Positions 5,497 through 49,071 are shown, counted from the stretch's first letter. The stretch: 64,000 bases of DNA from Pseudobacteriovorax antillogorgiicola (GCA_945865565.1 CAMBEK010000005.1:54056-118055); one strand, 5' to 3'. Numbers and translations are program-made. The notes: generated by a model not told the origin, from the letters alone.

Positions 5497-5706
5497 CGTC
5501 ATCCTGGGCTACCCCGTCATTCTGAGGCCGCACCCCGTCATTCTGAGGCCGAAGGCCGAAGAATCCTTTCCTCAACGCGGAAGAAAGGATCCTTCGCTCC
5601 GCTCAGGATGACGAAATAAGAAAAGATCCTTCGCTCCACTCAGGATGACGAAATAAGAAAGGATCCTTCGCTCCACTCAGGATGACGGAGCGGCTCAGGA
5701 TGACGA
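5497..5706. repeat. Composite palindromic array of ~35-bp dispersed repeat units (family shared with 48741-49071)
   Basis: Forward units CGTCATCCTGGG and CCGTCATTCTGAGGCCG (x2) ...GAAGGCCGAAGAATCCTTTCC are followed by 3-4 inverted units GAAGAAAGGATCCTTCGCTCCGCTCAGGATGACG. The array lies between the convergent stops at 5488 and 5729. Confidence 0.85.
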
Positions 5707-5728
5707 GAAAGAGAGAAACAAGGAGGCT

Positions 5729-7537
5729 TTAGCCTTCCTTGTTTCCAAAGAGGGCTTTGAACATTTTCTTGACCAAACCAACCACCGACGCCTCTTGTTG
5801 CGGCTTGGCGACAACAGCTGGACGAGCGTTCAGGTTGCGGTCCTGACGCTGCGGCTGCCGATCGGGTCCCCGACCTTGACGGTCGTGAATCGGGCGCTGA
5901 CGATCTGGTCCACGACTATGACCTTCATGACGCGGGCCTTGGCCACTGCCTGGCCGGCGAGGTCCACGGTCGGACTGGGTTTGACGTGGGTGCTGATTTT
6001 GTTGGCCACTGCGATCCTGATGCCGTGGGCCATCTGAACGAGGACCATCGCGCCTTGGACCATCCGGACGAGGGCCATCGCGCCGAGGACCATCGAAACG
6101 GGATCCGCCGGGACGCGGCCCGCGGTCTCCTGGGCGCGGCGAACTGGAGCGCCCACCCGAGAAACGGGACGCCTTTGCTTCCTTCCACGCCTTGATGCGT
6201 TCTTCGAAAGGATTGCCCGAAGCATCCACGATGCTATCAAAAGCCAGGTCATACCACTTGGCCTTGACTGGGAACTGCTCGCCCAAGAGTTCTTTGATCC
6301 CGGCCAGGTTCTCGCCGTAGTCATCACAAACCAACGAAAACGAACTTCCCTTGGCACCCGCGCGAGCGGTCCGACCAATCCGGTGCACGTAGTTGGCGGG
6401 TTCTTGAGGCAAATCGAAGTTGTAAACGTGCGTGATGCGCGAAATATGCAATCCGCGACTCGCGACATCCGTCGCGATGAGTGCCTTGACCTTGCCGTCC
6501 TTGATCTTGTGGATCAACTGGATGCGCTTGCTCTGGGGCAAGTCGCCTGTGATCAAGTCCACATCGATACCGTTGCGGGAAAGTTTGAAATGCAACCATT
6601 CCGCGGTCAGTTTCGTGTTGGTAAAAATGATGCAACATTCAGGATTATGCTCACGAAGCATGCCGAGCATGACCCTCAACTTGTTCGGGGCATCAACAAT
6701 GACTGCATGCTGCTCAATATTTTCAGGCGTCAGTGTTTCCGGATTGACCGAAATGTAGGCCGGCTTGTCGAGGTACTCAAAAGCGAGTTCCTTGACTTCA
6801 GCATTGGTCGTCGCGGAAAACAACAATTTCTGTACGTCTTCCGGGAGTTTGCTTAGGAAAAACTCGACGTCATCAATGAAACCCATGTCGAACATGCGAT
6901 CGGCTTCGTCGCAAACGAAAATCTTGCACTGGTCGAGGCGGATCAGCTTCTTCTCGAAGTAGTCTTTGAGACGGCCCGGGGTTGCGATGATGACATCAAC
7001 GCCTTCCCGAAGGCGTTTGGCCTGCTTGTCGTAATCAATTCCACCAAAAACAGCGATCGAACTAATGCCCAGGCGACCGAATACGGTCTGCGCGTCCTGC
7101 TCAATCTGCATGGCCAGTTCACGCGTCGGCGCCAGAACCAAGGCCAAAGGACGCGCGGCACTGCCGGAATCGTCCGCCACCGCTGCCGTCGATGCCCGAT
7201 GCTCGAGAATCCTCTGGGCAGCTGTGATTAAGAAGACACCGGTCTTGCCGGTGCCAGTTTGGGCAAATCCGGCAACGTCCCGACCCACAAGGGTCAAAGG
7301 CAAGCACATGCCCTGGACGGGGGTTGGCTGATTCCAGCCTAAATCAGCAATCGCCTGACGAAGTGCCTCCGAAAGTGGGGCATCCGCGAAGGACGTCAAA
7401 TTTTCTGACGCACCTTCGTCGGCAGCGACCAGTCTAGATTCGTCTTCGAAATCGTCTCCAGGCCGGACAATCTCCGGTTTTTCTTCAGGAATATGGTCTT
7501 CGCGGGGTTTCAGGTCTTCTTGCAGATTTTCCGTCAT
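5729..7537 (-). CDS. DEAD-box ATP-dependent RNA helicase with a long Arg/Gly/Pro/Gln-rich C-terminal tail
   Basis: The helicase core shows the Q-motif region PTPVQ, motif I AQTGTGKT, motif II VCDEADRM, SAT, and HRIGRTARAG. The C-terminal ~170 aa are low complexity and include FDGPRRDGPRPDGPRRDGPRSDGPR. Confidence 0.9.
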   Translation of the reverse strand: MTENLQEDLKPREDHIPEEKPEIVRPGDDFEDESRLVAADEGASENLTSFADAPLSEALRQAIADLGWNQPTPVQGMCLPLTLVGRDVAGFAQTGTGKTGVFLITAAQRILEHRASTAAVADDSGSAARPLALVLAPTRELAMQIEQDAQTVFGRLGISSIAVFGGIDYDKQAKRLREGVDVIIATPGRLKDYFEKKLIRLDQCKIFVCDEADRMFDMGFIDDVEFFLSKLPEDVQKLLFSATTNAEVKELAFEYLDKPAYISVNPETLTPENIEQHAVIVDAPNKLRVMLGMLREHNPECCIIFTNTKLTAEWLHFKLSRNGIDVDLITGDLPQSKRIQLIHKIKDGKVKALIATDVASRGLHISRITHVYNFDLPQEPANYVHRIGRTARAGAKGSSFSLVCDDYGENLAGIKELLGEQFPVKAKWYDLAFDSIVDASGNPFEERIKAWKEAKASRFSGGRSSSPRPGDRGPRPGGSRFDGPRRDGPRPDGPRRDGPRSDGPRHQDRSGQQNQHPRQTQSDRGPRRPGSGQGPRHEGHSRGPDRQRPIHDRQGRGPDRQPQRQDRNLNARPAVVAKPQQEASVVGLVKKMFKALFGNKEG

Positions 7538-21268: not shown

Positions 21269-21546
21269 TCGCTGGAACCAGCATTTGTCGAGAGCCACAG
21301 CCGGTCCTTTTCGGAAACGGCATAGGGGATCACTAATCTCATGATCTTTTTGTTGAGATCATCGAGAACCGTGCTGTCATCGCCAGAGGATGCCTTGAGG
21401 TCGTACTGCTTGAGTTGATCTTCAATTTGCCAATAGATGTCCACCGGCATGAGAAGTTCAATCAGAGGTCCGGTGGTTTTGATCGAATCCCGCTGCGTTG
21501 ATGCCAGCGAGATCCGATTGGCAATGACGAGGTACTTGCGAATCAT
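21265..21546 (-). CDS. Hypothetical 93-aa protein, translationally coupled on both sides
   Basis: The start overlaps the stop of the H1-like gene (TAATG) and the stop overlaps the gmhB start (ATGA). I recognise no motif. Confidence 0.5.
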   Translation of the reverse strand: MIRKYLVIANRISLASTQRDSIKTTGPLIELLMPVDIYWQIEDQLKQYDLKASSGDDSTVLDDLNKKIMRLVIPYAVSEKDRLWLSTNAGSSE

Positions 21547-22226
21547 TAGCGTTTTTTGGCTGGCTTCGCGGCCGGCTTGGCGGCTGGCTTTGCTTTGCCT
21601 GGCTTGGCGCTGGCTTTTGCCGGTGCCTTTACTGCTTTGGCCGGAGCGGCTTTCTTGGCTGGAGCAGGAGCCGCTTTTTTCGCTGGCGCAGGAGCAGCTT
21701 TCTTCACCGGAGCAGGAGCCGCTTTTTTCGCTGGCGCCGCCTTCGCAGCAGGCGCGGCAGCCGCTTTCTCTGGTTTTTTCGGAGCCGCTTTCACGGGGGC
21801 AGCTTCTTTTTTTGGTGCCGCCTTAACATCTGGTTTAACAACCGGCTTTGCATCTTGTTTTGCTGGCTTTGACTTGGGAGCGATCACGGGATCGATGACC
21901 TGTCCTTCGGCCTTCAAAGCAACTTTTTTGCCTTTAACATGAGGAACGTCAGCCTTCGCGTCATCGTCTTCAGCAGCAACCAGCTCCATCTCATGAACCA
22001 TCTTGAACAGACGTTGCCACAGTGTGTCATCCTTTCGGAGCCACGACTGAAATAGTTTACGGGCCGGTCGATTCACCAGCGCATCGTCCGTAAAGTAGGT
22101 TGAAAAATCACGGGGTGATTTGCGTTGCTTCAGTTCCGTTACATGCTGCGCAAGAATCAGAAGTTCAGAACCACGAGCGCGCAAAACCAACGAATCTTGA
22201 ATCGGCATAATTTCAACTGGCTGCAA
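21546..22226 (-). CDS. Histone-H1/AlgP-like Lys/Ala/Pro-repeat protein with an unassigned N-terminal domain
   Basis: The C-terminal ~110 aa are AKKAAPAPAKK-type repeats, visible in the DNA as a 24-bp periodicity at ~21560-21800. The N-terminal ~100 aa are non-repetitive. A TTG start at 22226 has GGGAG 6 nt upstream; the alternative is ATG at 22208. Confidence 0.65.
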   Translation of the reverse strand: MQPVEIMPIQDSLVLRARGSELLILAQHVTELKQRKSPRDFSTYFTDDALVNRPARKLFQSWLRKDDTLWQRLFKMVHEMELVAAEDDDAKADVPHVKGKKVALKAEGQVIDPVIAPKSKPAKQDAKPVVKPDVKAAPKKEAAPVKAAPKKPEKAAAAPAAKAAPAKKAAPAPVKKAAPAPAKKAAPAPAKKAAPAKAVKAPAKASAKPGKAKPAAKPAAKPAKKR

Positions 22227-26177: not shown

Positions 26178-27437
26178 ATGACAAAAAACCCTGAATCGAA
26201 CGCCGCATCGAACCCTGACTCAATCCAAGCCATCGTCACTTGCCCCGACGAAACCAAGGAAGTTCTAGCGGCCGAACTCCGGGCTTTGGGCGTCACCGAC
26301 ATCGATGTCCGCTACCGTGCCGTGGCCTGCACCGTTCCGGACCTTGAAACTTTTTATGAATTGCATCTGAAACTGCGGACCGCCAGCCGGATCTTCCGCG
26401 TTGTCAAGGAATTTGCTGCCCATACAGAACAGATGCTGGGCGATCAGGCCAAACGCATCCGTTGGGCCGATTGGTTTTTACCGGAGCGAACCTTCCTGGT
26501 TGAAGGCGTTCCAGCAGACCGCGGGCCGGGCGTGATGGGATCGAATGCCATCAGCAAGACGATCCGCGAAAGTCTGCAGGCTGCTTTTGCCCAACACACG
26601 GGAAAAGTCCCAAAGGTTGACCTCAAAGACCCGAAGGTCATTGTCGTTGCCTTCATCCAAAAAGGCCGCTGCACGCTCAGTTTGGATACGACAGGAAAAA
26701 CCCTGCACAAACGCGGCTACCGCACGGAAGGCCATCCGGCCCCAATCAAAGAGACCTTGGCCTGTGCCATTTTGGATTTGGCAGGTTATGACGGAACCCA
26801 GGCGCTCCTCGATCCGATGTGCGGCAGCGGCACCATTGCCATCGAAGCCGCCTACCGGGGGCTGCACAAGGCCGCACACATTCACCGCAAAAAGGGCGAG
26901 TTTGGTTTTGAGTGGTTGAAAGATTTCGACAACGACATCTGGCGGAAAGTCTCGGACCGCGTTCGTGGCGAGCGCCTGGAATCGCTGCCGGCACCGATTG
27001 TCGCCTCAGACATCAGCGAAAAGTATGTCGAGATGGCTCGCGAGAACGCACTGCGTGCCCGAGTGGAACGAGACATCCAATTCCAGGCTGGAAGGATTGA
27101 GGACGCCCGCCCCCATGCCGAGACGGGATTACTTGTCGCAAACTTGCCTTACGGCGCGCGCCTGGGCAAAGGCGATGATGAAGCCTTGAGTCAACTCTAC
27201 GAAGAGATTGGCGACAATCTGAAAAAGAACTTCAAGGGTTGGCGTGCTGCATTACTGGTGGCCGAAGAATCGCCTTGGAAATTCATTGGCCTCAAGCCCA
27301 CACGGCGCATCCCTCTCATGAACGGCAGCATCAAAGCCAAACTTTTGATCTACGACATGTACGCCGGTACGAAAAGAAGGCCGAAGGACGAAGAAACCCA
27401 GAATGACGAGGCCAACTCAGGGCATGCGGCTGACTGA
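26178..27437 (+). CDS. THUMP-domain class I SAM-dependent RNA methyltransferase (RlmL/RlmK N-terminal-module-like)
   Basis: An N-terminal THUMP-like region (IVTCPDETKEVLAAELRALG) is followed by DPMCGSGTIAIEA and the catalytic LVANLPYGARLG. Confidence 0.75.
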   Translation: MTKNPESNAASNPDSIQAIVTCPDETKEVLAAELRALGVTDIDVRYRAVACTVPDLETFYELHLKLRTASRIFRVVKEFAAHTEQMLGDQAKRIRWADWFLPERTFLVEGVPADRGPGVMGSNAISKTIRESLQAAFAQHTGKVPKVDLKDPKVIVVAFIQKGRCTLSLDTTGKTLHKRGYRTEGHPAPIKETLACAILDLAGYDGTQALLDPMCGSGTIAIEAAYRGLHKAAHIHRKKGEFGFEWLKDFDNDIWRKVSDRVRGERLESLPAPIVASDISEKYVEMARENALRARVERDIQFQAGRIEDARPHAETGLLVANLPYGARLGKGDDEALSQLYEEIGDNLKKNFKGWRAALLVAEESPWKFIGLKPTRRIPLMNGSIKAKLLIYDMYAGTKRRPKDEETQNDEANSGHAAD

Positions 27438-27714
27438 CCACGAAATTGATTCCATCAAGACGGCGGTTCATCATTTTGATCCCGAGGCCCAGATTTTTAT
27501 TTTTGGATCCCGCGCCCATGACAGCGCCGCAGGTGGCGACATCGATTTATTGATTGAATCAAAAACGATTCAATTCGATAATCGTATTTCGATATTGGCG
27601 GCCATCAAGAAGATGATTGGCGAACAGAAAATTGATTTGTTGGTATCGAAAGGGATCGACAACGATATTGATCCCTTTATTCAGTCGATCAGAAAAGAAA
27701 TGAAACAACTTTGA
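27424..27714 (+). CDS. Minimal nucleotidyltransferase (MNT/MntA-like antitoxin)
   Basis: IFIFGSRAHDSAAGGDIDLLI matches the GS-x9-10-DxD pol-beta NTase motif. The start may be 27424 or 27403. The local sequence is about 30-40% GC, against ~55% in the flanks. Confidence 0.75.
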   Translation: MRLTDHEIDSIKTAVHHFDPEAQIFIFGSRAHDSAAGGDIDLLIESKTIQFDNRISILAAIKKMIGEQKIDLLVSKGIDNDIDPFIQSIRKEMKQL

Positions 27715-28160
27715 CTAAAAAACCTTCACAGCTACTTTTGGAAAAATACTCGCAGCAGGCGGATAAAGCAGCGCATTGGTTAAGACGGTCACTACAAAAA
27801 TCCACCTCATTTCAAATTTCAGACAAACTGACAGAATCAGAATTTGATGTTTTAGAAAATTTGACATCACGTTTTGCAAGGCTATGTGACATTTTGTTTC
27901 AAAAAGTGTTCCGGGCCATCGATTCAACAGAACTGGAATCGCCCGGTACGATTATCGATGTTTTGAATCGGGCCGCAAAACGCGGAATCGTCGCCAACGA
28001 CCATCTGGCCAGGGAATTGCGTGAATTACGCAACACCATCGCGCACGAATACACGGAAGAGCAGTTAGTAGAGTTGTTTAAAAAAATACGCAAGGTCAGC
28101 CCAGACCTTCTTGAGATTCACGAAAATACAAAAAAATACCTGGCTGCGCACCAAGCCTGA
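27711..28160 (+). CDS. HEPN-domain protein (HepT/DUF86-like toxin partner of the MNT)
   Basis: ELRELRNTIAHEY contains the R-x4-H HEPN motif. The TTG start overlaps the MNT stop (TTGA). Confidence 0.65.
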   Translation: MTKKPSQLLLEKYSQQADKAAHWLRRSLQKSTSFQISDKLTESEFDVLENLTSRFARLCDILFQKVFRAIDSTELESPGTIIDVLNRAAKRGIVANDHLARELRELRNTIAHEYTEEQLVELFKKIRKVSPDLLEIHENTKKYLAAHQA

Positions 28161-28232
28161 GCATCCAGTCGTAGCCTCAAAACCAGGAATTCACCTCCGT
28201 TCGTACCCCTTACATTAGAGGGCTTTCCGGGG

Positions 28233-28290
28233 TATTATATTTTGTCAGGACGATGTGACATTTTTGTCAGATCGACATGACAAAATAATA
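28233..28290. promoter_or_regulatory. Operator-like nested inverted/direct repeats upstream of the DUF4143 ATPase gene
   Basis: TATTATATTTTGTCA (28233-28247) is nearly complementary to TGACAAAATAATA (28278-28290), and TTTTGTCAG is repeated directly at 28240 and 28262. The feature ends 17 nt before the start at 28307. Confidence 0.35.
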
Positions 28291-29464: not shown

Positions 29465-29592
29465 TCATGACCGGTTGTCGAAGAGTGAAGGCAGACTCAT
29501 CGACCCAATCTTTCTGACATCGCTAAGCCGCGATCCATTGAGGACATCGTGAAGTGTGATTGAATTTCGTACAATCCTGCTGATGTTCTTGT

Positions 29593-30966
29593 TCAGACGA
29601 TTTCGCTAAGCAACCGATGCAATTGACCAGTCATATACAAAGGTAGTGATAGGAGCTTTAGTGAGTAGGTTCCGACTCCTTTTGCAGTCACCACGGACGG
29701 CTGACTCTGAGTCAATTGCGGAGGTTGCCCGCAAAGTTTGATAGCAAGTGGTGTTTGATTATGGGCCATCATGAATTGATGCAACGACCTGAGAGACCCT
29801 GTTGTTCCTGCTTTGACCTCGATGGGGACAAGCCAGCGGTCGTGTTGGACCAGAAAATCAATTTCGGCGCTAGACTGCCTTTGTTCTCGCTTCCAGTAGT
29901 AGAGCTCCGGAGGACGCTCGGCACCAGCTATCGTAGCGATATGCTGCGCCACAAATTGCTCCGCAAGGGGCCCTTCCCAGATGGTAACATCATCAAAGAG
30001 AGTAGAGCGTGGCAAAACTCCGAGTCCATGGCACGCTAATCCAACGTCGACAAAATATAGTTTTGCGGACGACTGATCTGCGGTCGCCCCAATGGGTAGT
30101 CCTTGCCCATCCGTGTGGAATGCCTTCCGGATTACACGCGCATAGTGGAAGAGTGCAAGAATATCGCGAGTTACGCTGCTTCGCTCTCCCGGAGCGATCT
30201 CTGCATATTTTATTTTGCGCCCAACAAAGCCGGGTGTCCGCGTAAAAATCTCATGCATCAACATAATTTTTGCGCGCTTACCATATTTATGAAAATCTTC
30301 GCGGTATGTTTGGAGGATCGATTGTTGGGTGGACGACCATTGGGGTGAGTTCGGGTTAGCCACAAACGCCTCGACAACCTCCGGCATCCCGCCAACCATC
30401 AAATACTCTCTGAGCCGCTTCATCAGCTGTTTATGAAGCTGATCTGGCCATAAGTCGCCCACGTGAAACGCTTGAAGGCGCTCAACCAAAAAATCCTCGC
30501 CTGCCGCTTGCAAATATTCTTCGAAACTCATGGGTTCAACGTGTAAAAACTCGATCCGCCCCACCGGCATGGAAAACTTTGCTTCGCTCAACGCAAATTC
30601 AAGCAAAGATCCTGCGGCGATCACCGGGATGTCCGGGTTCTGTTCATAAAAATAACGCAGGGCCGCCAAACAATGGGGAGTCGCCTGAATTTCATCGAGG
30701 AATAGCAAGCTTCCTTCGCGTCCAACGGGGCGGTGAAAGAAACTGCTAAGTTCTGCTATGATCAAAGGCATGTCTAATGTCTTAAAAACCGCGTCAAATG
30801 AAACCTGTTGTTCCAGGTTAATCTCGTCGAGCTCTAACCCCATTTCCCTTGCAAAAAGACGTACTAAACTCGACTTACCGACTTGCCGGGCACCCCGAAG
30901 CACAAGCGGTTTTCTTTTTTTACTGTTAAACCAGTTGGTTAGGTTTGTTTGAAGGATTCGTCTCAT
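29593..30966 (-). CDS. AAA-type ATPase with C-terminal DUF4143/PD-(D/E)xK-like domain (longer paralogue type)
   Basis: Walker A GARQVGKSSL and Walker B LLFLDEIQ. The C-terminus AEIDFLVQHDRWLVPIEVKAGTTGS has the same E-[IV]-D-F...IEVK pattern as the neighbouring gene. Confidence 0.75.
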   Translation of the reverse strand: MRRILQTNLTNWFNSKKRKPLVLRGARQVGKSSLVRLFAREMGLELDEINLEQQVSFDAVFKTLDMPLIIAELSSFFHRPVGREGSLLFLDEIQATPHCLAALRYFYEQNPDIPVIAAGSLLEFALSEAKFSMPVGRIEFLHVEPMSFEEYLQAAGEDFLVERLQAFHVGDLWPDQLHKQLMKRLREYLMVGGMPEVVEAFVANPNSPQWSSTQQSILQTYREDFHKYGKRAKIMLMHEIFTRTPGFVGRKIKYAEIAPGERSSVTRDILALFHYARVIRKAFHTDGQGLPIGATADQSSAKLYFVDVGLACHGLGVLPRSTLFDDVTIWEGPLAEQFVAQHIATIAGAERPPELYYWKREQRQSSAEIDFLVQHDRWLVPIEVKAGTTGSLRSLHQFMMAHNQTPLAIKLCGQPPQLTQSQPSVVTAKGVGTYSLKLLSLPLYMTGQLHRLLSEIV

Positions 30967-30973
30967 GGGCTAT

Positions 30974-31016
30974 ATACCCTATAATAAATCACAAAAAGTG
31001 ATATTTGTAAGGGTAT
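30974..31016. promoter_or_regulatory. Nested palindrome immediately upstream of the minus-strand DUF4143 ATPase gene
   Basis: The outer pair is ATACCCT (30974-30980) with AGGGTAT (31010-31016). The inner pair is TCAC-aaaaa-GTGA (30989-31001). The feature begins 8 nt from the ATG at 30966. Confidence 0.35.
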
Positions 31017-31063
31017 TTTAGAGCGCTAAAACGTCAAATGTCAATGTATTTACTGAGGACACC

Positions 31064-33646: not shown

Positions 33647-35770
33647 ATGGGTGGTCTTGTGGAAATCAGGGCGTTTGCGGAACAGGTCCTGTTCGGCTCA
33701 AACATCGCAGATAAAACTTCGGCTCCCGTCGGCATCCGCCCATTTACCGACGAGGTGCCTGGCCCGGCTTTGGACGCGCCGCCGACTTTGCCCGGCCGCC
33801 CTCCTGAACTCGCCTTTGACCGCCGCCTGCCCCACGCCGCACAGTTTCCTGGTGCCGGGAAATTATCCGACCCGCGCGGCCGGGGCATGGTCCTGCACTA
33901 CTTTGCCAACCACGAACTTTTGGCCCTTGAGGTCATGGCCCTTGCTTTGCTGCGCTTTCCCGATGCGCCGAAATCTTTTCGAGCAGGCATTGCACGCACG
34001 ATGGTTGAAGAGCAATCCCACCTGAAACTTTACATTGAACGAATGGCAGAACTTGGCGTGACGTTCGGCACGATGCCAGTGAACAGTTTCTTCTGGCGCA
34101 CGATGAAAGACATCGCCACACCACTGGAATATTCTGCAGCGATGTCACTGACGTTTGAGCAGGCGAATTTAGATTTTGCCGAGCACTATGAAAAATCCTT
34201 CCGGGAATTAGGCGACGAGAAAACGGCTGACATTTTGCGTCAGATTCACGACGACGAGATCCGCCACGTTGAACATGGTGTGATCTGGCTGAAAAGATTT
34301 GAGTCCGAAAAAACACTTTGGGATGCCTACCGCGAGCACCTGCGATTTCCGCTGACCCCGAGCCGGGCCAAGGGCCCTGTCTTTGACGAGGCGGGGCGGG
34401 CGCGGGCTGGTTTGGATGCGGAGTTCATTTCTCAACTTAAAGTATTCAGCTCTTCGAAGGGACGTCCTGCAGATTTATGGATGTTCAATCCAGGTTGTGA
34501 GCGTGAACTTGCAGCCGGAACAAAAACGCCTTTTTTCCAGGGCAATGCATCGTTCATTGAACGTGACTTGGCGCCGCTATTGATGTTTCTTGCGGCGACT
34601 GACGACGTGGTTATGGTGAGTCAAAAGCCGTCCCTGCCCTTCCTGTCACAGATGAAGTCCGCGGGGTTTTCTCTTCCCGAGTTTATCGAAACCGGCGACG
34701 TTCCTGATGCCACTACTATTTTAAAATCCCTGGGCAGCCGTAAATTAGGTGTGCTGCATCCATGGGGAGAAACTCCTGCTGCGATGGCATGGGCCAAGCC
34801 TCTGGCAACCATCCTTCGTGGAATGCCGGATCCATGGCCCACGGGATTCACCTCGTTTTTCAGCAAGGATTTTGCCGCGCGCATTGCGCCCGATGCCTAT
34901 TCTGGCCGTCGCTGCGAAAACATGGCGGAGGTTCAAGTCGTCGCCAACGACGTGCAACGCGCCGGGCACACACACCTTGCCGTGAAACCAGTGCTTGGTG
35001 CTTCGGGACTGGGCCTTCGCCGCATCGCCCTTGAAAATCGCAGTCCCGACGGAATCCAAATCACGGAAAAAATAAAATTTCCCTGCATCGCGGAACCTTG
35101 GCTGGATAAAATTTGTGACCTCAGCGTCCTGTTTAAAGTTGAATCGACCGGTCCCGTCCGCGTTCGCGTCCTCGGCATCACGCGGCCTTTGATTGACCGA
35201 ACCGGAAAATATTGTGGCCACGCCCTGGGCCGCCCGTTCAGTTTTCCCGATGCCAATGGCAAAGCCTTTGATCAGGATTTTTTCGGCAAGCTTTATCCGG
35301 GGTGGATGGACCAACTGCGCGAGGCTGCACTGCAGTGCGGCGAACAAATGCACGCCGCTGGCTTTTCAGGACCCGCAGGGATTGACGCGATGGTTTTTCG
35401 CGAGCCCGGACCGCAACCAGTGCAGAGCCGGCCTTTAAGGCTGCGCCCGGTCGTTGAAATTAATCCGCGTTATTCCATGGGACGGGTTGCTGCTGCTTTG
35501 GAACACGGTTTGGCCCGAGGGCATACGGCGATCTGGCTGCACATTCACAACAAGCTCCTGCAGCGAAGCGGCTGCGACACTTTCGCCGCCTTTGCCAAAG
35601 AAATGACACGGCGGTTTCCCCTTGAAACTGTTACCACTGCAGGTGCAGTAAATGTGAAGAGTGGTTTTCTTCCAACCACAGATCCAGAAATTGCAAACGG
35701 CATCCTGACCGCGCTCTTCGCTGGCCAGGATGCCGCAACCTTTGCCTGGAATCTGCTTTACGCCGAGTGA
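33647..35770 (+). CDS. Fusion protein: N-terminal DUF455 (ferritin-like di-iron fold) plus C-terminal ATP-grasp ligase-like module
   Basis: N-terminal half: HYFANHELLALEVMALALLRFPDAP, EEQSHLKLY, LTFEQANLDF and DDEIRHVEHG, which are DUF455-type helices with E/H ligands. C-terminal half: HLAVKPVLGASGLGLRRI and GPAGIDAMVF...RPVVEINPRYSMG, which are ATP-grasp P-loop-like and Mg-binding motifs. Confidence 0.65.
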   Translation: MGGLVEIRAFAEQVLFGSNIADKTSAPVGIRPFTDEVPGPALDAPPTLPGRPPELAFDRRLPHAAQFPGAGKLSDPRGRGMVLHYFANHELLALEVMALALLRFPDAPKSFRAGIARTMVEEQSHLKLYIERMAELGVTFGTMPVNSFFWRTMKDIATPLEYSAAMSLTFEQANLDFAEHYEKSFRELGDEKTADILRQIHDDEIRHVEHGVIWLKRFESEKTLWDAYREHLRFPLTPSRAKGPVFDEAGRARAGLDAEFISQLKVFSSSKGRPADLWMFNPGCERELAAGTKTPFFQGNASFIERDLAPLLMFLAATDDVVMVSQKPSLPFLSQMKSAGFSLPEFIETGDVPDATTILKSLGSRKLGVLHPWGETPAAMAWAKPLATILRGMPDPWPTGFTSFFSKDFAARIAPDAYSGRRCENMAEVQVVANDVQRAGHTHLAVKPVLGASGLGLRRIALENRSPDGIQITEKIKFPCIAEPWLDKICDLSVLFKVESTGPVRVRVLGITRPLIDRTGKYCGHALGRPFSFPDANGKAFDQDFFGKLYPGWMDQLREAALQCGEQMHAAGFSGPAGIDAMVFREPGPQPVQSRPLRLRPVVEINPRYSMGRVAAALEHGLARGHTAIWLHIHNKLLQRSGCDTFAAFAKEMTRRFPLETVTTAGAVNVKSGFLPTTDPEIANGILTALFAGQDAATFAWNLLYAE
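35665..35770 (+). repeat. Direct repeat copy A (functional 3' end of the DUF455/ATP-grasp gene)
   Basis: 35688-35770 matches 36406-36488 at 82 of 83 nt by my alignment (G at 35729, A at 36447). Weaker similarity extends back to ~35665. Confidence 0.85.
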
Positions 35771-35846
35771 CTAATATCCCAGAAAAGGCCCGGGTGCGGG
35801 AATTGGCCTGGTATGTTATATTTTTTTGAAGTTTGAGGGAGGTCCA

Positions 35847-36110
35847 GTGGCCAAGCCAATCGTAAATAAATGGGCCTTCTCGCCACACGCGGCGACTCGT
35901 ATGATGGAACGCAATATCTCGGTTGAGACAATTCAACAATTGATTGAGACACCAGATCTTGTCCTTGCGCAGGGACCGAAATGGTTGTTCGCGAAGTCAT
36001 TTGACGTACGTCACGACAATTTGGTTGCAGCAGTTCTGTTGGAAAGAAAGGACAGGGAATTATGGATCGTACTCACGGTCATGGTAAATTTTCAAGCCAG
36101 GGTAAAGTAA
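35847..36110 (+). CDS. DUF4258-like small toxin candidate
   Basis: FSPHAATRMMERNISVETIQQLI matches the HAxxRMxERxI motif of DUF4258. The GTG at 35847 has GAGGGAGG 4-5 nt upstream; the track start at 35826 is in the same frame. Confidence 0.6.
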   Translation: MAKPIVNKWAFSPHAATRMMERNISVETIQQLIETPDLVLAQGPKWLFAKSFDVRHDNLVAAVLLERKDRELWIVLTVMVNFQARVK

Positions 36111-36349
36111 AGGCAAAAGACAAGAAAACGACTCGAACATCGAACAAGGACCAGTTTCCGTTCGTGTCCATCGATAAAGATTCGGATTTTGCTGCGATCA
36201 AACTTGCGGCCGGAATCGAGGCCAAAAGCTACCTCAAGGACGGCGTCTTGTTTTCCGAGGACGCAAAGGGTCGCGTGATCGAACTTCAAATTTTGAACGT
36301 AAGTCTCACAACCAAATCATACCCAAAAAAGCCTGGTAAAGCGGGTTAA
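36062..36349 (+). CDS. DUF2283-like small protein (antitoxin candidate)
   Basis: SIDKDSDFAAIKL...DAKGRVIELQILNVS resembles the DUF2283 pattern (YDxxxDxLYIxL...GxIxGIEIL). The true start may be the in-frame GTG at 36164, which would remove the overlap with the upstream gene. Confidence 0.55.
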   Translation: MDRTHGHGKFSSQGKVKAKDKKTTRTSNKDQFPFVSIDKDSDFAAIKLAAGIEAKSYLKDGVLFSEDAKGRVIELQILNVSLTTKSYPKKPGKAG

Positions 36350-36370
36350 TGCAGACCTTCAAAAAAAGAT

Positions 36371-36488
36371 TTTTCTTCCAACCATAGATCGTGACAGATG
36401 GTGGGAAATTGCAAACGGCATCCTGACCGCGCTCTTCGCTGGCCAGAATGCCGCAACCTTTGCCTGGAATCTGCTTTACGCCGAGTGA
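36371..36488 (+). repeat. Direct repeat copy B (decayed duplicate of the 3' end at 35665-35770)
   Basis: See copy A. In the frame equivalent to copy A, this copy reads ...FQP-TAG and so is non-coding. Confidence 0.85.
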
Positions 36489-36814
36489 CGAGCGCCGCGA
36501 CCGGCAACACCTTTTTTCGCATGTCCCGCAACGTGACTCATACACTGGGCAACGATGCCCTTTGAATGCGCAGCCTTGTAGCTGGACGGAGCGCCATGCT
36601 TCCATGCGTCCTCGGAATCAAAGCGGCGAGCAACCTTGGACAAGCGGGCCATCGTCCATTCTGGTTTTTTGGCCTTGTCTTCCAAGCTGTCATTGCTTTT
36701 CTTGGCTGGCTTCTTTTTTTCCTTCGCGGCGCCTTCGGCCGGCTTTGCACCTTTTTCCTCGGCTTTGGCTTCGTGACCGTGAGCGCCTGCCGCTGCGGCT
36801 GTATCTTTAACCAT
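36476..36814 (-). CDS. Hypothetical basic protein (112 aa; Lys/Ala/Glu-rich N-terminus)
   Basis: GGAGG lies 5 nt upstream of the ATG at 36814. Four ORFs overlap here in different frames, and this one has the only good RBS. The stop abuts repeat copy B. Confidence 0.45.
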   Translation of the reverse strand: MVKDTAAAAGAHGHEAKAEEKGAKPAEGAAKEKKKPAKKSNDSLEDKAKKPEWTMARLSKVARRFDSEDAWKHGAPSSYKAAHSKGIVAQCMSHVAGHAKKGVAGRGARHSA

Positions 36815-48740: not shown

Positions 48741-49071
48741 TCCTGAGCATTGCCCGTCATCGTGGGTGTTGCCCGTCATCCTGAGCGCCAGCGAAGGATC
48801 CTTTCTTAACCCGTCATTCTGAGGCCAAAGGCCGAAGAATCCTTTCTTCTCCGCCTCAGTAGGCGGATTCTCGACTTTCCGCGGAAAGTCCCGTTATCTG
48901 CGGCCTACTGCAATACGATTTCTTTCATAAAAAATATGGCAGTCGTGTTTTTAAAAAAATTTGAAGAAAGGATCCTTCACTACGTTCAGGATGACGAGTT
49001 AAGAAAGGATCCTTCACTACGCTCAGGATGACGAGTTAAGAAAGGATCCTTCGCTGGCGCTCAGGATGACG
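48741..49071. repeat. MITE-like palindromic array of the dispersed ~35-bp repeat family, with perfect 34-bp terminal inverted repeats
   Basis: 48774-48807 (CGTCATCCTGAGCGCCAGCGAAGGATCCTTTCTT) is the exact reverse complement of 49038-49071. Three inverted 37-bp tandem units lie at 48964-49071. A type-2 unit CCGTCATTCTGAGGCCAAAGGCCGAAGAATCCTTTCTT sits at ~48811-48848. Confidence 0.85.

Follow-up and report, generated by a model that had tools for sequence, protein, structure and literature searches.

A predicted toxin–antitoxin cassette flanked by copies of its target gene end in an Oligoflexales-like bacterium

The stretch of DNA analysed here, referred to as the window, comprises 64,000 nucleotides (64 kb) of Pseudobacteriovorax antillogorgiicola (GCA_945865565.1 CAMBEK010000005.1:54056-118055). 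At the 3′ end of a gene coding for a DUF455 protein, the window carries a small cassette with a predicted toxin–antitoxin (TA) pair, in which a DUF4258 gene is followed by a DUF2283-like gene, and the cassette is bracketed by two nearly identical copies of the DUF455 gene end. Since relatives have a single copy of this gene end at an otherwise empty site, the cassette is an insertion with target duplication. The explanation towards which we lean, by a modest degree, is that a foreign TA cassette of 0.6 kb arrived by insertion with long target duplication, which is a mode described for restriction–modification (R-M) gene units (Nobusato et al. 2000, Gene 259:99; PMC2853133).

A gene end in two copies

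The core of the direct repeat (35687-35771 and 36405-36489) measures 85 nt with one G/A mismatch (98.8% identity). An earlier note on this DNA, made by inspection of the sequence, had described it as a near-perfect duplication of 83 nt with a single G/A difference, which stands at this slightly greater length. The weaker similarity that the same note saw over a further 23 nt or so was recovered as an upstream extension of 20 nt with 1 mismatch (35665-35684 versus 36371-36390). Between extension and core the spacing of the copies changes from 706 to 718 nt, which corresponds to a 12-nt indel, and with this indel included copy A is 107 nt and copy B 119 nt long. Local alignment of the two copies (35665-35771 versus 36371-36489) gives a score of 87, compared with a shuffle maximum of 16. 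Each half of the 85-nt repeat occurs exactly twice in the 64 kb, where shuffles predict 0 occurrences, and the repeat is the sole long, local, non-tandem direct repeat of the window; with only these two occurrences it is not a generic dispersed repeat, the outcome that had been named in advance as refuting an insertion. The insert directly abuts both copies, and between them lie two co-directional, overlapping open reading frames (ORFs) and nothing else, in agreement with the DUF4258-like and DUF2283-like genes first proposed there, although the DUF2283 match is marginal. The insert's GC content is 46.1%, lower than the 55.7% of the DUF455 gene and the 53.6% of the window as a whole.

The relatives used for comparison are metagenome assemblies, and the genome of the window is itself known from the 64 kb analysed here. 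An empty site, in which one repeat copy is followed directly by the right flank, was found in ten contigs (L001-L010) that are 93-96% identical in nucleotide sequence and encode DUF455 proteins of 96-98% identity. The site is likewise empty in the nearest species representative, L021 (91% amino acid identity), and in the distant relatives L022 and L023 (70% and 61%). Filled sites were found in more than ten independent assemblies (ENA, JGI), always at this locus, and no relative among the contigs compared carries the duplication without the cassette. The alignment with orthologous loci that had been suggested as a check therefore bears out an insertion, since the duplicated arrangement is not fixed in all relatives and single-copy sites occur both at 93-96% nucleotide identity and further away. 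Judging from these assemblies, the insertion is segregating in a freshwater Oligoflexales-like population.

The reading of copy B as a decaying relic is not supported. Read in the DUF455 frame (36366-36488) it gives KIFLPTIDRDRWWEIANGILTALFAGQNAATFAWNLLYAE up to the terminal stop codon, with no internal stop. The C-to-T change that was thought to create an in-frame TAG turns ACA into ATA (Thr to Ile), and the TAG falls in a different frame. In addition, a convergent gene that is under purifying selection has its C-terminal codons and stop codon in the final 13 nt of copy B. The 12-nt net indel is real but need not be a sign of decay, as intact natural alleles have a 4-codon indel at this very position, namely those of P0123 (711 amino acids, ...PTTDPDSGGEMPNG...) and L030. 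Over 124 nt, copy B of the window is 91% identical to the 3′ end of the L030 gene. The DUF455 gene thus shows a length polymorphism of four codons just upstream of its conserved C-terminus (window 35684-35687; L003 ~2725-2740; L030 ~1825-1845), and alleles of 707 and 711 amino acids coexist in one species-level population.

The host genes on both sides are complete. The DUF455 protein, which is the cluster representative P0001 although an exact look-up gave no record of it, matches Pfam DUF455 with E = 6.7e-50 and, weakly, COQ7; the label ATP-grasp, which it had also been given, was not reproduced by Pfam. Its C-terminal residues (GILTALFAG.DAA..AW) are invariant in homologues at 62-100% identity. 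In empty sites, the convergent gene of 112 amino acids overlaps the DUF455 stop region by 13 nt, and in the window copy B ends with these 13 nt. Purifying selection acts on the convergent gene, as seen from a nonsynonymous divergence (dN) of 0.044 and a synonymous divergence (dS) of 0.424 between the window and L030; its lysine- and alanine-rich product is kept in all relatives and has no family match in Pfam or NCBIfam. It is because of the duplication that both genes are complete, as a plain insertion between them would truncate one of the two. The features of the locus are listed in Table 1.

Table 1. Layout of the cassette and the adjoining host genes (positions in the window)
Feature	Position	Strand	Description
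DUF455 gene	33647-35770	+	target gene, 707 aa; last 35 codons within copy A
Repeat copy A	35665-35771	+	intact DUF455 3′ end, TGA plus 1 nt
Cassette leader	35772-35846	+	75 nt, foreign; begins 1 nt past the DUF455 stop
Predicted toxin gene	35847-36110	+	87 aa, GTG start, DUF4258
Predicted antitoxin/regulator gene	36062-36349	+	95 aa, DUF2283-like; 49-nt overlap with toxin gene
Cassette tail	36350-36370	+	21 nt, from antitoxin stop to copy B
Copy B, upstream part	36371-36404	+	diverged; 12 extra nt as in "+4 codon" alleles
Copy B, 85-nt core	36405-36489	+	last 13 nt are the antisense 3′ end of the convergent gene
Convergent host gene	36476-36814	-	112 aa, lysine-rich

Cassette genes and related loci

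The first gene of the cassette matches Pfam family PF14076 (DUF4258) with E = 1e-8 and 35.7 bits, against a cut-off of 25, and the second gives a marginal match to PF10049 (DUF2283) with E = 9.7e-5 and 22.9 bits, against a cut-off of 23. The AlphaFold2 model of the DUF4258 protein (pLDDT 87.8) has a predicted beta-alpha-alpha-beta4 fold, and in a Foldseek search of the PDB it is closest to HigB2 (E = 0.011, TM score 0.53) and BrnT (TM scores 0.52-0.57), with no match at E <= 0.001. Searches of PDB sequences with both cassette proteins, and of NCBIfam and PADLOC, gave no matches. DUF4258 has been listed as a BECR-fold type II toxin family of the RelE/ParE superfamily, with target unknown and no experimental reference (PMC11980606). 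For the partner family, a literature search returned no paper naming DUF2283 as an antitoxin; the only characterised DUF2283 protein that it returned, FseA, is a transcriptional activator of the excision of an integrative and conjugative element (PMC4755241). Purifying selection acts on the two cassette genes, whose dN/dS ratios are 0.15 for the toxin gene and 0.19 for the partner gene of the window, within an overall range of 0.06-0.19. The DUF2283-like partner accompanies the toxin gene at every locus examined. That the cassette is a type II TA (addiction) module of the RelE/ParE superfamily is thus a well-supported prediction. The leader probably contains a promoter/operator (TGGTATGTTATAT) and a ribosome-binding site (GAGGGAGG). 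Over ~60-70 nt it is homologous to the cassette leaders of L030, L034, L035 and L051, and this sequence is absent from empty sites.

In its organisation the cassette resembles toxin-first BECR modules such as HigBA and BrnTA, in which a small toxin gene with its own leader and putative operator precedes an overlapping partner gene. It shares with them a patchy distribution among strains and the low-GC signature of horizontal acquisition, and HigB2 and BrnT are also the best PDB matches of the predicted fold, at E > 0.001. In contrast to these modules, the partner is DUF2283-like and not a helix-turn-helix or ribbon-helix-helix antitoxin, and DUF4258 is a family without experimentally shown activity or target (PMC11980606).

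Toxin homologues of 76-79% amino acid identity are found at other loci. In L034, the cassette lies between a tRNA-Val gene and a minus-strand ORF and is flanked by a direct repeat of ~190 nt (5658-5852 versus 6570-6760; score 122, shuffle maximum 17), whose right copy covers the last 21 codons and the stop codon of this ORF, of 89 amino acids, and whose left copy is a frameshifted relic of that sequence. In L035, the DUF4258/DUF2283 pair and the MNT/HEPN pair next to it are flanked by three partly overlapping units of 64-72 nt (a+b, b+c and a+b+c). Within these units lie the pepQ stop codon and a strong hairpin (z = -6.2 and -4.2), and two nested insertions with target duplication would give such a pattern. 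All three repeat-flanked sites are convergent (3′-3′) intergenic regions, and in each of them the repeat covers the stop codon of a neighbour: that of the 112-amino-acid gene in the window, of pepQ in L035 and of the 89-amino-acid ORF in L034. No flanking repeats were found around the cassettes of L051 and L052 or those of the more distant homologues L041-L050.

What the loci share is the cassette and not its surroundings. The related inserts have a GC content of ~46% regardless of that of their host, and their homology spans from 60-150 nt 5′ of the toxin gene to 0-70 nt past the partner gene, with leaders of 67-148 nt and tails of 0-70 nt. At its right end the L034 cassette cuts ~35 nt into a second DUF2283 gene, which is intact in L051. 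The repeats of the window, L034 and L035 have no core in common, and their mutual alignment scores are no better than those of shuffles. Because the repeats are unrelated and the end points differ between loci, the insertions do not look like the product of one site-specific recombinase. The site-specific insertion invoked in the earlier note is therefore not borne out, as what is seen are unrelated local duplications without a common core around cassettes with differing ends.

DUF4258/DUF2283 cassettes tend to adjoin other TA-like genes and to form small clusters with them, as exemplified by the MNT/HEPN pair of L035 (6647-7368), hipBA in L052 (4071-5640) and extra DUF2283/DUF4258 genes in L051 (2197-2439) and on the P0145 contig; the contexts of P0145 and P0142 were compared as gene maps. 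In L036, a perfect 55-nt direct repeat with a spacing of 155 nt (1361-1570) lies in the region of the HEPN gene when compared with L035, and could reflect strain variation or an assembly artefact. In L030 and L031, which belong to another lineage, an AAA_14/DUF4143 gene (L030 3258-4493) is inserted between the convergent small gene and a DUF2079 gene, and ahead of it stands a 32-nt tandem repeat (L030 3186-3255), which at the same time makes up a 29-nt inverted repeat.

Age and spread of the insertion

The earlier note regarded the insertion as recent. However, in L030 and L031, whose DUF455 gene has 84% nucleotide identity, this site also holds a homologous cassette, in L030 with a flanking repeat of 94 nt at 91% identity. 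The window and L030 share 83.9% of nucleotides in the cassette and 84.1% in the DUF455 gene, and the cassette genes have dS values of 0.56 and 0.67, compared with 0.67 for DUF455, 0.58 for Rsm22 and 0.42 for the convergent gene. As a lineage at a dS of ~0.67 has a cassette at the same site that is as diverged as the host genes, the insertion is not recent. The right junction of L030 corresponds to the arrangement in the window minus 55 nt, a deletion for which the 5-nt repeat AATGC would account, provided that copy B formerly had the sequence GAAATGCC seen in the L003 type. The simplest history, and a likely one, has one old insertion into a "+4 codon" ancestor. Two lineages that are nearer to the window than L030, L021 (dS 0.42) and L003 (dS 0.25), are empty, so that the cassette must later have been lost or its allele replaced. 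Between the window and L030 lineages the leader is wholly different over its first 10 nt, and for this reason two separate events at one site are possible.

Within the population, the 633 nt between the repeat copies differ by 0-0.6% among filled contigs. Over a 1.5-kb flank the same contigs differ by 1-4.5%, and their divergence from empty alleles reaches 11%. Filled alleles show little diversity between ~35100 and ~37300. The flanks are mosaic: the empty L001 groups with filled alleles on the left, the empty L006 groups with some filled alleles over the first 300 nt on the right, and between the window and L011 the difference is 0.3% within the cassette but 5.7% over the next 300 nt beyond copy B. 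These mosaic flanks place recombination breakpoints at or in the repeats. A clean phylogeny of filled versus empty haplotypes was attempted and fails, since L001 and L006 have mosaic flanks, and the histories of gain and loss are inseparable for the same reason. The pattern fits a spread of the filled allele by homologous recombination, and exchange of linear fragments, repeat-mediated loss and single-crossover re-entry are all compatible with the data. Depending on the contig, the two repeat copies differ at 0, 1 or 2 nt, and this variation suggests that gene conversion between the copies may be continuing.

Possible routes of insertion

No machinery for mobility was found at the site. Some 55 ORFs compared from all over the window gave housekeeping families and no match to an integrase, transposase or recombinase, and no integrase is present in the 5-6 kb flanks of related loci, nor any cognate integrase or parent element at the site in ~30 related contigs. 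An attC site or other structured junction was considered and rejected (junction folds z = -0.15 and -0.95; no Rfam match), and neither a terminator nor a plus-strand promoter consensus was found at the junctions. The lack of an integrase, a transposase and an attC-like structure, as originally described, is thereby confirmed by the ORF, fold and Rfam searches of the window, and mobilisation in trans, which had been proposed on that ground, may occur. A 14-nt inverted repeat is present at the cassette edges (35818-35831 and 36357-36370). A transposon or a miniature inverted-repeat transposable element is rejected nevertheless, as this inverted repeat is absent from the cassettes of L030, L034 and L035 and there is no short flanking duplication. 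Carriage by phages, plasmids or viral contigs was likewise discarded, as collections of these gave no DNA match and hold no relatives. With the TA cassettes of integrons the unit shares its discrete, promoter-proximal organisation and, in L035, L051 and L052, an array-like association with other TA pairs. In contrast to integron cassettes, there is no attC-like hairpin, Rfam match or IntI in the window, and the flanking repeats are copies of the local target.

We hypothesize that the insertion duplicated ~107-119 nt of the target, so that each host gene kept a complete 3′ end. The event does not resemble the work of a dedicated site-specific recombinase, and break-and-repair or template switching would be more likely. 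The duplication could have arisen from staggered or offset breaks with fill-in, or from a replication template switch to the cassette and then back to a point ~110 nt upstream. The filled allele would then have been inherited and exchanged by ordinary homologous recombination, giving rise to the presence/absence polymorphism, and the near-identity of the 85 nt would be kept by purifying selection on copy A and by gene conversion between the copies. That the cassette could persist despite flanking repeats prone to deletion may be explained by its predicted nature, because the loss of an addiction module is counter-selected.

The closest precedent for such an event comes from R-M units. Furuta, Abe and Kobayashi (2010) recognised insertion with long target duplication by repeats of >30 bp, an empty site holding a single repeat copy, an insert of <20 kb, the absence of a mobility gene and a unique repeat, and also required homologues of both R and M in the insert (PMC2853133). 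In the R-M cases a start or stop codon is often included in the repeats, which leaves the target gene unharmed, and breakage of DNA by the restriction enzyme has been proposed as the common cause, with the mechanism stated as unproven (PMC2853133). The locus in the window shows a repeat of the length specified, an empty site, a small insert with no mobility gene and a unique repeat; in place of R and M genes its cargo is a DUF4258 and a DUF2283-like gene, which puts it outside the class as first defined for R-M units. In both kinds of unit, a small selfish or addictive entity without a mobility gene is bounded by genome-unique direct repeats that measure tens to hundreds of bp, vary in length and sequence from site to site and span a stop codon, and single-copy empty sites exist. 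The tendency of the repeats to cover the stop codon of a neighbouring gene was also noted by Furuta et al. Differences lie in the cargo, here a predicted type II TA pair, in the proposed cause, as breakage by a restriction enzyme does not obviously apply to a toxin with an RNase fold, and in the host, an uncultured Oligoflexales-like bacterium known from metagenomes only. According to a 2013 review, this mode had been reported for R-M systems only (PMC3874152), and our full-text search of a limited literature collection returned no such insertion for a classical TA pair.

Several observations weigh against insertion of a TA cassette with long target duplication. No donor sequence was found, and the generating mechanism is purely one that we infer. 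The junctions of the window and L030 differ, by ~10 nt on the left and 55 nt on the right. Of the two loci that appear to repeat the pattern, L034 has an 89-amino-acid ORF that is an ORFan found on one contig only and perhaps not a real gene, the repeats of L035 are old (72-83% identity), and an empty site was found for neither; six more distant cassette loci have no flanking repeats. A recombinase may be encoded outside the 64-kb window. As to the cargo, the DUF2283 match lies just under the Pfam cut-off, and the fold matches of the DUF4258 protein have E > 0.001.

The main rival starts from a different type of element. Cis-mobilizable elements (CIMEs) are what is left, with no integrase, of integrative elements at the 3′ ends of genes such as fda in Streptococcus thermophilus. 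Like them, the cassette has attL- and attR-like repeats with a gene 3′ end, lacks an internal integrase and could be mobilised in trans. It would then be the decayed remainder of an integrase-borne element that brought a 3′ end in its attP, the copies being attL and attR, and that lost everything except the TA pair while perhaps remaining mobile in trans. We regard this origin as unlikely, though it accounts for a good deal: such elements leave behind a duplicated gene 3′ end with a restored gene, copy B has an upstream part of the +12-nt allele type, unlike the resident gene, as expected of an arm borne by the element, and recombination in the population has its breakpoints at the repeats or inside them. 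Furthermore, L034 adjoins a tRNA gene, L035 resembles an accretion of two cassettes separated by repeat units, and TA pairs would be plausible last survivors of decaying elements. However, no integrase is encoded in the window or in the 5-6 kb flanks at related loci, the three loci have three unrelated repeats without the shared att core of a CIME, and the cassette ends are not fixed, one of them truncating a gene. As only 21-76 nt of non-coding sequence separate the TA genes from the repeats, decay would repeatedly have to stop at the same minimal unit, and the partial overlap of the L035 units fits nested duplications better than one att core. Repeats without relation to one another, ends that vary and an integrase that is missing from the DNA examined thus weaken the case for a decayed CIME-like element.

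Another scenario concerns the spread of the cassette and leaves its first insertion unexplained. The cassette and one repeat copy would leave as a RecA-dependent circle of 718 bp and re-enter in a Campbell-type event via the 85-119 nt of homology, a life cycle comparable to one that Kobayashi's group proposed for repeat-flanked R-M units (PMC2853133). We consider this improbable. Homology of 85 nt at 99-100% identity suffices for homologous recombination and would make a dedicated enzyme unnecessary, and a cassette that is nearly invariant between immediately mosaic flanks, as in the comparison of the window with L011, agrees with it, as does the hybrid structure of the locus (a copy A of the -12 allele and, as copy B, a relic of the +12 type), which is the expected product of a crossover in the 85-nt core. 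On the other hand, a non-replicating circle of 0.7 kb has no known route between cells, the low diversity shared by filled haplotypes over ~600 nt on the left and ~800 nt on the right fits a transfer of linear fragments, and no empty site carries variants specific to copy B. Finally, short tandem duplications are common and junctions made in two steps are possible, so that the gene end might have been duplicated first and an unrelated foreign insertion have entered between the copies by coincidence, but with no duplication without the cassette in any relative, the recurrence of the association with different repeats in L034 and L035 and an insert that abuts both copies exactly, we hold this to be very improbable.

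Some further features of the window lie away from the cassette. A second TA pair, consisting of an MNT nucleotidyltransferase gene (27403-27714) and a HepT-like gene (27711-28160), occupies 27399-28236; compared with L008, which has 27 nt there, it is an insertion without flanking duplication that replaces the last codons of an rlmL-like gene (26178-27437). Between the rlmL-like gene and an esterase gene, the segment 28307-30966 is strain-variable and holds two AAA_14/DUF4143 ATPase genes in the window, and positions 29490-31047 are extra relative to L008; a Cas9-like gene with weak HNH_4 and RuvC_III matches is found instead in L001, L006 and L007 (positions 1-2100). A 37-nt unit (AAGAAAGGATCCTTC.C....CTCAGGATGACG...) is present in three tandem copies at 5581-5691 and in two at 48964-49037, 43 kb apart, and represents a dispersed short tandem repeat family. 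Imperfect 48-nt units that start 24 nt apart and half overlap (21625-21786) lie inside an ORF on the minus strand (21546-22226), for which there is no Pfam match.

The duplication pattern is seen at one verified locus and at two candidate loci for which no empty site was found. Its presence around a TA cassette of 0.6 kb suggests that insertion with long target duplication is not tied to cargo that cuts DNA. It also suggests why addiction modules are the visible cargo, since repeat-mediated loss would be counter-selected in their case. The locus exemplifies one way in which overlapping convergent genes can tolerate an insertion between them, and it cautions that a duplicated gene 3′ end is not always an att site. 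A wider and rather doubtful possibility, on present comparisons, is that TA and R-M addiction cassettes share an integrase-free mode of entry into the chromosome that inherently duplicates ~50-200 bp of target DNA. In this case, the repeat-bounded unit would be a minimal mobile element, able to loop out and re-enter via its repeats, with addiction protecting an otherwise unstable structure. If this were true, the DUF4258/DUF2283 family would offer a compact model for a mechanism that has been open since 2000.

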